From a virus, in IMG/VR virus record IMGVR_UViG_3300031857_000110: a stretch of 64,000 nt of DNA, one strand, 5' to 3'. The first letter of the stretch is position 1; every line of letters starts with the position of its first letter. A program made the position numbers and the translations under genes. The notes under the pieces are model-generated. The model saw nothing but the letters and a program-made list of their open reading frames with translations. It was not told the origin of the DNA and did no database searches. Of the stretch, positions 40,478 to 40,858 are shown piece by piece.

Positions 40478-40858
40478 ATGAAAATCTCCATTTCACATCA
40501 ACATTTTGCAAATTGGTTAAAGGCTCAAGATGCTCTAACTAATCCAGAAAAATATCTTGGCCCCAAATGGAAAGATGTCCTGAACTTTTGGATTTATTTG
40601 GATTCAGAAGAGTCTGAGTGGGATGAGCGGCGTTGCACCGCTACTCTGCGTGCCGCTTATAATATTATAGGCTCTGAGTGGGATGAGCGGCGTTGCATCG
40701 CTACTCTGCGTGCCGCTTATAATATTATAGGCTCTGAGTATGGATATGCAGCTTTTAATGCTCATGTTGGTTATGCTGAAGGGCATGCAACCTGTGAACT
40801 TATCGCTTCACATAAACTTGAGTCTCTCAGTTTTCTTCCCCTGTTCTTGACCCCATGA
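40478..40858 (+). CDS. family-A member 9 with internal 60-nt tandem duplication
   Basis: GSEWDERRC(T/I)ATLRAAYNIIG encoded twice by a near-identical 60-nt repeat (40612..40731). Confidence 0.7.
   Translation: MKISISHQHFANWLKAQDALTNPEKYLGPKWKDVLNFWIYLDSEESEWDERRCTATLRAAYNIIGSEWDERRCIATLRAAYNIIGSEYGYAAFNAHVGYAEGHATCELIASHKLESLSFLPLFLTP

Follow-up and report, generated by a model that had tools for sequence, protein, structure and literature searches.

The DNA analyzed here, which we call the window, is a stretch of 64,000 nucleotides from the IMG/VR virus record IMGVR_UViG_3300031857_000110, read on one strand from 5' to 3'. At 40478..40858, it carries a gene whose middle contains a 60-nt block present twice in tandem. 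The gene, the repeat, and the elements next to them are arranged as follows:

40443..40470, + strand: hairpin and T-run resembling an intrinsic terminator, between the upstream gene and gene 40478..40858
40478..40858, + strand: gene with the duplication, from the ORF list, encoding protein P0001 (126 aa), which matches the family HMM at E 1e-40
40613..40672, + strand: copy 1 of the 60-nt unit, encoding SEWDERRCTATLRAAYNIIG (sequence and TRF)
40658..40669, + strand: perfect 12-nt palindrome TATAATATTATA (self reverse-complement match), 3 nt 5' of the copy junction and present again at 40718..40729
40673..40732, + strand: copy 2 of the 60-nt unit, encoding SEWDERRCIATLRAAYNIIG (sequence and TRF)
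40733..40739, + strand: TCTGAGT heptamer, the 7-nt start of a third copy, which also opens each of the two copies

TRF reports the tandem repeat at 40613..40739, with a period of 60, 2.1 copies, 98% matches, no indels, and a score of 247. The two copies stand head-to-tail with no spacer and differ solely at unit position 26 (C40638 versus T40698, giving ACC for Thr and ATC for Ile). The unit is codon-aligned in the ORF, where it is translated twice as SEWDERRC(T/I)ATLRAAYNIIG. A match at 59 of 60 positions between adjacent 60-mers cannot have arisen by chance in 64 kb. A preliminary description of this DNA had reported a 60-nt in-frame tandem duplication in the variable middle of a paralog family, which the sequence and TRF confirm, and both the one-base Thr/Ile difference that it noted and the duplication of the AAYNIIGSE motif region are borne out. 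The coordinates it gave, 40612..40731, lie one base too far to the left, the rest of the description being sound, and the block that it quoted as beginning gctctgag is exact for copy 2 but not for copy 1, which is preceded by ag and not by gc. The palindrome TATAATATTATA may, speculatively, serve as a pause site.

The gene is a small gene of what is probably a large freshwater T4-like cyanophage. The helicase encoded at 27628..28866 in the window matches 419 phage records, nearly all of which are named Synechococcus, Prochlorococcus, or “Cyanophage” (5 are named “Marine”); its best match, at 43% identity, is to Synechococcus phages B3 and B23, whose genomes are roughly 244 kb (PMC7171214). A Kyano_Gp96 domain is found on a neighboring gene in a related contig from ENA (L004, described below). 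Megablast of window positions 38000..44000 against deposited phages returned no match. In addition to helicases and an HNH endonuclease, the window encodes the following:

2291..2374: tRNA-Leu(TAA)
10793..11533: R2K ATP-grasp protein
16775..17923: TyrRS
19970..20734: CCA-adding enzyme
32689..34233: RNA ligase

An ORF of 2,044 aa at 3627..9761 has no Pfam match at E <= 1e-3.

The product of the duplicated gene belongs to a protein family for which the HMM identifies 14 members in the window. All of them lie on the + strand, and they include three adjacent pairs. Besides gene 40478..40858, the members are:

16033..16398 and 16395..16766, + strand: adjacent pair of family paralogs (HMM)
26684..27040, 27037..27408, 28871..29230, and 29823..30197, + strand: family members (HMM)
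34253..34645, 34642..34995, 42108..42512, 45762..46211, and 46258..46854, + strand: family members (HMM)
37220..38377, + strand: 387-aa protein in which the family match is limited to the N-terminal motif ENPEQVLGPNCKSILDFWESLD (HMM positions 1-43, E 8e-10)
44014..44643, + strand: the paralog closest in the duplicated region, with a C-terminal family domain containing ...SAAYAIIGSEYANAAF...

The family is defined by a conserved N-terminus (MKIS..H..FA..L..Q.AL.YPE.FLGPNWK.VLNFWIYLDTLS) and a conserved C-terminus (AT.ELIGSHKLE.L.FLPLFLN), between which the middle varies in both sequence and length. Paralog 44014..44643 shares 17 nt identical to the copy junction (the ATTATAGGCTCTGAGTA region). 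In the 387-aa protein at 37220..38377, the family motif is fused to an unrelated C-terminal region. Both 44014..44643 and 46258..46854 have an N-terminal extension of ~100 aa (…ETARILGISVSHSRLLRRIND…) that looks helix-turn-helix-like by eye and has no Pfam match.

An exhaustive profile search recovered 373 representative family clusters at E <= 1e-3. A word-indexed search recovered 97 clusters, none of which is functionally annotated save for one labeled “selenophosphate synthase,” and that label looks spurious. The family was found only in phage-like contexts. Neither Pfam, PHROGs, NCBIfam, PADLOC, nor a PDB sequence profile gave a match to it, its fold had no match in searches of PDB and BFVD, and tblastn with a typical member found nothing in 50,697 deposited phage genomes. 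The family profile gave 57 pattern matches in species-representative bacterial and archaeal genomes, of which tblastn confirmed none, and we found no description of the family in the literature. Two distant members (P0134 and P0225) carry an N-terminal RHH (CopG-type) DNA-binding domain, a fusion that is the only functional hint for the family, and a weak one.

Tandem arrays of family members are also found on contigs of other T4-like phages. A JGI contig from metagenome 3300057123 (L006, Ga0568996_0000095) has 14 family genes within 20 kb (8404..19561, about 11 kb), interleaved with TyrRS, NAMPT, and NMNAT/NUDIX genes; this contig is from a different large phage, and its family genes form three arrays, head-to-tail, in which stop and start codons overlap. 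On another contig (L007), three family copies lie beside genes for DNA polymerase B, a RecA/UvsX-like protein, and a DnaB-family helicase.

Two contigs from related phages bear on the origin of the duplication. The first, the 35-kb ENA contig L004, is collinear with window positions 34474..46384 at 93.85% identity over 12 kb, and it also has both copies of the unit, which differ from each other at 6 of 60 positions. The second, a 1,476-bp contig (L005), aligns end to end with window positions 40398..41915, including matching downstream genes, and is a syntenic ortholog with one copy of the unit. The unit in L005 is laid out as TGTGAGT, 53 nt, and then TCTGAGT, with the two heptamers 60 nt apart; therefore, the unduplicated state had two near-identical heptamers around 53 nt, which is a classic slippage substrate. 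In L004, TGT opens copy 1, matching L005, and TCT opens both copy 2 and the heptamer after the array, the order expected if a nascent strand that ended in the downstream heptamer had slipped back to pair with the upstream heptamer. Both copies in the window, and the heptamer after the array, open with TCT, a state that calls for a single subsequent G-to-C substitution (Cys to Ser) or else a conversion.

Slipped-strand, or microhomology-mediated, tandem duplication is RecA-independent, occurs between short direct repeats, and is classic in E. coli and phage T4. The arrangement seen here resembles its products in that the copies are head-to-tail, the unit of the single-copy allele is delimited by a direct repeat of 5-7 nt, a third short repeat stands at the 3' end of the array, and the repeat at the junction is of the downstream type. 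Nothing about it is mechanistically unusual; it differs in having a unit that is a multiple of three and in having been kept in two lineages rather than being transient. From this footprint, and above all from the microhomology in the single-copy ortholog L005, we infer that the repeat is very probably a slipped-strand tandem duplication that occurred a single time, in an ancestor shared by the window and L004 lineages. The single-copy ancestor would have had two T(G/C)TGAGT heptamers, 60 nt apart, around a 53-nt stretch. During replication, a nascent strand that had just copied the downstream heptamer would have re-paired with the upstream one, and the 53 nt would then have been copied a second time, giving the order heptamer-X-heptamer-X-heptamer. 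At 60 nt and codon-aligned, such an event would insert 20 residues in frame and repeat one helical element (SEWDERRCxATLRAAYNIIG); the insertion would fall in the variable middle and leave the N-terminal helices and the C-terminal ELIxSHKL...FLPLF unaffected. The two-copy allele would then have spread and been kept intact in both descendant lineages. A hairpin in the DNA between the heptamers, considered as a promoter of slippage, was not significant (z -1.29). Homologous unequal exchange between sister molecules at these same heptamers would give an identical product.

The comparison with L005 also revealed that the duplication partly overlaps a region of exceptional divergence:

40604..40702, + strand: hyper-divergent patch relative to the single-copy L005, with 24-27 of 57 alignable columns different and an 18-nt indel

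Over these ~100 nt, the window is ~45% different from L005, compared with ~7% in the flanks. Within the patch, L005 differs from the window at 27 of 57 columns and from L004 at 24 of 57, and the window and L004 differ from each other at 4. Outside it, a three-way comparison places the window, L004, and L005 at nearly equal distances, with 10, 10, and 11 differences of 126 columns in the 5' part of the gene and 8, 10, and 9 of 156 in the 3' part. The downstream 1 kb is a mosaic among the three lineages, a sequence pattern that indicates recombination between them. The version of the patch shared by the window and L004 (LDSEESEWDERRC) looks derived because L005 keeps the family-canonical start of the segment, LDT..LS.RED. 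Further, a two-copy allele (contig L003) and the one-copy allele (L005) co-occur in a single metagenome, 3300057123, and the locus is thus polymorphic among co-occurring related phages.

Given such a patch, the two-copy block could instead have been imported as a recombination cassette, through gene conversion or replacement of a patch, with another phage or a paralog as the source. Import would also account for the divergence around the duplication (24-27 of 57 columns and the 18-nt indel, set against flanks at ~7%), sharp patch boundaries are typical of recombination, and the mosaic relationships downstream are in keeping with exchange. However, a search of the 14 in-window paralogs and the retrieved loci gave no donor for either version of the patch, and L005 has almost the same 3' half of the unit (1 difference in 30), which means that the duplication extends across the edge of the patch and does not coincide with the patch. 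The arrangement of heptamers in L004 and L005 fits local slippage, and an imported repeat would still need a tandem duplication somewhere. We consider import unlikely and retain slippage at the locus itself as the explanation for the repeat. A 572-bp ENA contig encodes a protein (P0004) whose N-terminal 32 residues are those of the one-copy ortholog P0003 and whose middle is paralog-like (LDTLSVEERRIINRRYLALDN…), which suggests mosaicism or an orthologous position able to hold very different variable segments.

The preliminary description called the duplication recent. That holds only if it is measured against the age of the paralog family, as the duplication predates the split of the window from L004 (~6% DNA divergence). 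The distances between units, with W for the window and A for L004, are W1-W2 1, W1-A1 3, W1-A2 3, and A1-A2 6, and all substitutions are confined to one copy, with none common to both copies of either genome. Window and L004 differ at 7 of 120 positions (5.8%) in the repeat and at 18 of 261 (6.9%) in the rest of the gene. The similar divergence of repeat and flanks, together with the copy-specific substitutions, points to one duplication before the window/L004 split. The simplest history compatible with these sequences would be a single duplication at or just before that split, followed by ordinary divergence. Two early independent duplications, one in the window lineage and one in that of L004, are less parsimonious but, with just three lineages compared and mosaic relationships among them, keep some probability.

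A different history would have the repeat actively unstable in a contingency-like manner, either made independently or continually homogenized in each lineage, and therefore truly recent in the window. In its favor, the window copies differ at 1 of 60 positions and those of L004 at 6 of 60; copy 1 of the window opens with TCT where L004 and L005 have TGT, possibly a trace of conversion; and a truly lineage-specific 9-nt slippage is present in a paralog. Yet every substitution is confined to one copy, none being common to the two copies of a genome, which speaks against this history, and the changes per lineage (2 versus 5 in 120 nt) fit the flank rate of ~3% (8 changes each, by hand count). 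An exact-sequence look-up in ~15 billion proteins found no one-copy, three-copy, or homogenized two-copy allele of the window lineage, and the P0001 protein cluster is a single sequence. Thus, the two-copy allele is the only one of the window lineage on record, and there is no sign of current repeat instability, although copy-number variants at low frequency may exist. A 60-nt unit is, moreover, unable to shift the reading frame, and with a unit that is a multiple of three and the two-copy allele alone on record, the locus does not have the makeup of a phase-variable contingency repeat. We therefore judge ongoing instability very improbable.

Short tandem repeats can be misassembled from short reads, and all of the data used here are metagenomic assemblies. 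An assembly artefact was named in the preliminary description as the scenario that would overturn the duplication; independent contigs and the diverged two-copy ortholog L004 exclude it. The exact 126-aa protein is present on 11 contigs (the protein-cluster table gives 7), the longest of them 249,543 bp, and contigs from three JGI metagenomes (L001, L002, and L003) are identical to the window at every base of the gene, the C/T difference between the copies included. The same structure thus recurs in contigs of three JGI samples and in ENA assemblies, and the complete 127-nt array is shorter than a typical read. The diverged genome L004 carries copy-specific substitutions that an assembler cannot invent. 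A search of the IMG/VR viral contigs and of JGI metagenome contigs with a 26-nt exact pattern taken from the repeat returned no match and thus no further alleles. An assembly or sequencing error as the source of the repeat has a negligible probability. Equally negligible is the probability that the two copies are the template and variable repeats of a diversity-generating retroelement (DGR): Although a near-identical repeat pair tied to the variable segment of a protein family is reminiscent of DGR variable regions, the copies are in tandem, head-to-tail inside one ORF, their sole mismatch is C/T and not adenine-specific, and no window ORF of at least 250 aa matches a reverse transcriptase family.

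The likely effect of the duplication on the protein was considered with AlphaFold models built from a 95-sequence alignment. The two-copy protein is modeled as all-alpha (pLDDT 86.8, pTM 0.82), as is the one-copy ortholog P0003 (pLDDT 89.8), and the helices of the two models correspond one to one save for one extra helix in the two-copy protein. The P0003 model has helices at residues 46-53 and 60-70; the window protein has successive helices at 50-65 and 67-84. Copy 1 is modeled as the extra helix (residues 50-65, pLDDT 63-69), and copy 2 occupies the native helix position (residues 67-84, pLDDT >90), although the low pLDDT of copy 1 may be a mere reflection of the alignment gap in most homologs. 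As modeled, the duplication thus appears to add one helix to the variable middle, with the N-terminal helices and the C-terminal helix and tail unchanged.

Changes in the middle segment are not restricted to this gene. The following short repeat, detected by TRF, lies in one of the paralogs:

46114..46135, + strand: perfect 9-nt tandem duplication (ATAATAGCG; NSD to NSDNSD) in paralog 45762..46211

This duplication is absent from the L004 ortholog and thus represents lineage-specific slippage within the family. We also scanned 239 family proteins for self-similarity, for which the maximum among shuffled controls was 40. P0001 and P0002 scored 113 and 101, respectively, and eight relatives with Ala-rich tandem repeats in the homologous segment exceeded all shuffled controls (P0233, 123; P0118, 103; P0181, 79; P0147, 78; P0132, 78; P0136, 71; P0137, 66; and P0205, 59), with periods of mostly 4, 12, or 16 aa. 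A weak 16-aa echo (AAW.AA.EVVG / AAW.AA.DVTG) can be seen in many typical members; its scores, 38-39, fall close to the 99th percentile of the null. An apparent older duplication seen by eye in P0057 did not exceed the shuffled null. The microhomology in L005, the 9-nt duplication in the paralog, the Ala-rich repeats, and the divergent patch all support the earlier proposal that the variable region is being remodeled by duplication or slippage.

Between the window and L004, dN/dS is 0.80 for gene 40478..40858 and 0.97 for paralog 42108..42512, values that involve small counts (6.5 synonymous and 18.5 non-synonymous substitutions). The other family members compared have values of 0.27-0.58, and the non-family neighbors compared have values of 0.04-0.5 (0.04 for HNH and 0.18 for a ThiF-like gene), two short neighbor genes having too few substitutions for an estimate. 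High dN/dS shows weak constraint and on its own is no proof of positive selection. It appears that indels and repeats in the variable segment are tolerated or favored.

Other differences and repeats were observed elsewhere in the window. L004 lacks ~1.5 kb of the window, ~46384..47892 (at ~11940 in L004), a loss that takes most of paralog 46258..46854 and ORF 46855..47430 and is gene-content variation between phages that are ~94% identical. The sole array in the window of comparable strength to the 60-nt repeat is a 48-nt x2 repeat at 23019..23115 (TRF score 194), which lies in a small ORF (23019..23123), starts at the ATG, is perfect, and encodes MEKKFNRKKNETKGHF twice. Its copies are 100% identical, which makes it likelier than the 60-nt repeat to be an in-frame duplication of truly recent date. 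The intergenic stretch 61369..61533, downstream from ORF 60942..61346, contains 47- and 56-nt tandem repeats that have an inverted-repeat core, TTATTGATAATCATTCTCAATAA, and may be iteron- or operator-like elements.

Helical repeat proteins evolve by repeat expansion, as seen in surface or binding proteins whose helical or Ala-rich repeats vary in number. The family described here is similar in that the duplicated unit corresponds to one predicted helix, the homologous segment of relatives is Ala-rich with periods of 4, 16, or 20 aa, and conserved ends surround a length-variable middle. In contrast to helical repeat proteins, however, it has no detected link to any named repeat family, its fold is a compact small helical domain that is unmatched, and most of its members have no obvious repeats. 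A second comparison is with the hyperplastic regions (PMC3037559, PMC2984593) of T4-like phages, cyanomyoviruses among them, which contain multi-copy gene families. As in such regions, small genes occur in tandem arrays amid core replication and metabolism genes, and content varies among close relatives, as exemplified by the ~46384..47892 segment missing from L004. The family departs from them in lacking both a tblastn match in the 50,697 phage genomes and a PHROG, and in its unusually many copies, with 14 genes in the 64 kb of the window and another 14 in 20 kb of L006.

The duplication looks like a textbook case of replication slippage; its main value is as a clean and datable example, with an allele from before the event, the microhomology, and two descendants that have since diverged all on hand. 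It also marks an unannotated, highly amplified orphan all-alpha family whose middle is altered by repeats, indels, and a divergent patch, with changes in this segment occurring even between phages ~93% identical that co-occur in one lake metagenome. With low confidence, the variable segment may be the specificity-determining surface of this multi-copy family. More speculatively, and with odds that we would put well below even, the family could be a phage-specific, massively amplified module of a conserved dock plus a variable helix, a form of targeted hypervariation in large cyanophages that does not involve a DGR. The invariant N-terminal PEKYLGPNWKDVLNFW and C-terminal ELIGSHKL...FLPLF would then bind a constant partner, and recognition would fall to a rapidly diversifying surface made up of the middle helices, for example, one that counters variable host defenses. 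Such a surface would be remodeled as helices are duplicated, Ala-rich repeats expand, and patches are replaced in cassette-like fashion between co-occurring strains, and the 60-nt duplication would be one captured step in that process. Should the variable segment indeed serve as a surface for recognition, large freshwater cyanophages would have in this family a candidate module for host interaction or anti-defense.
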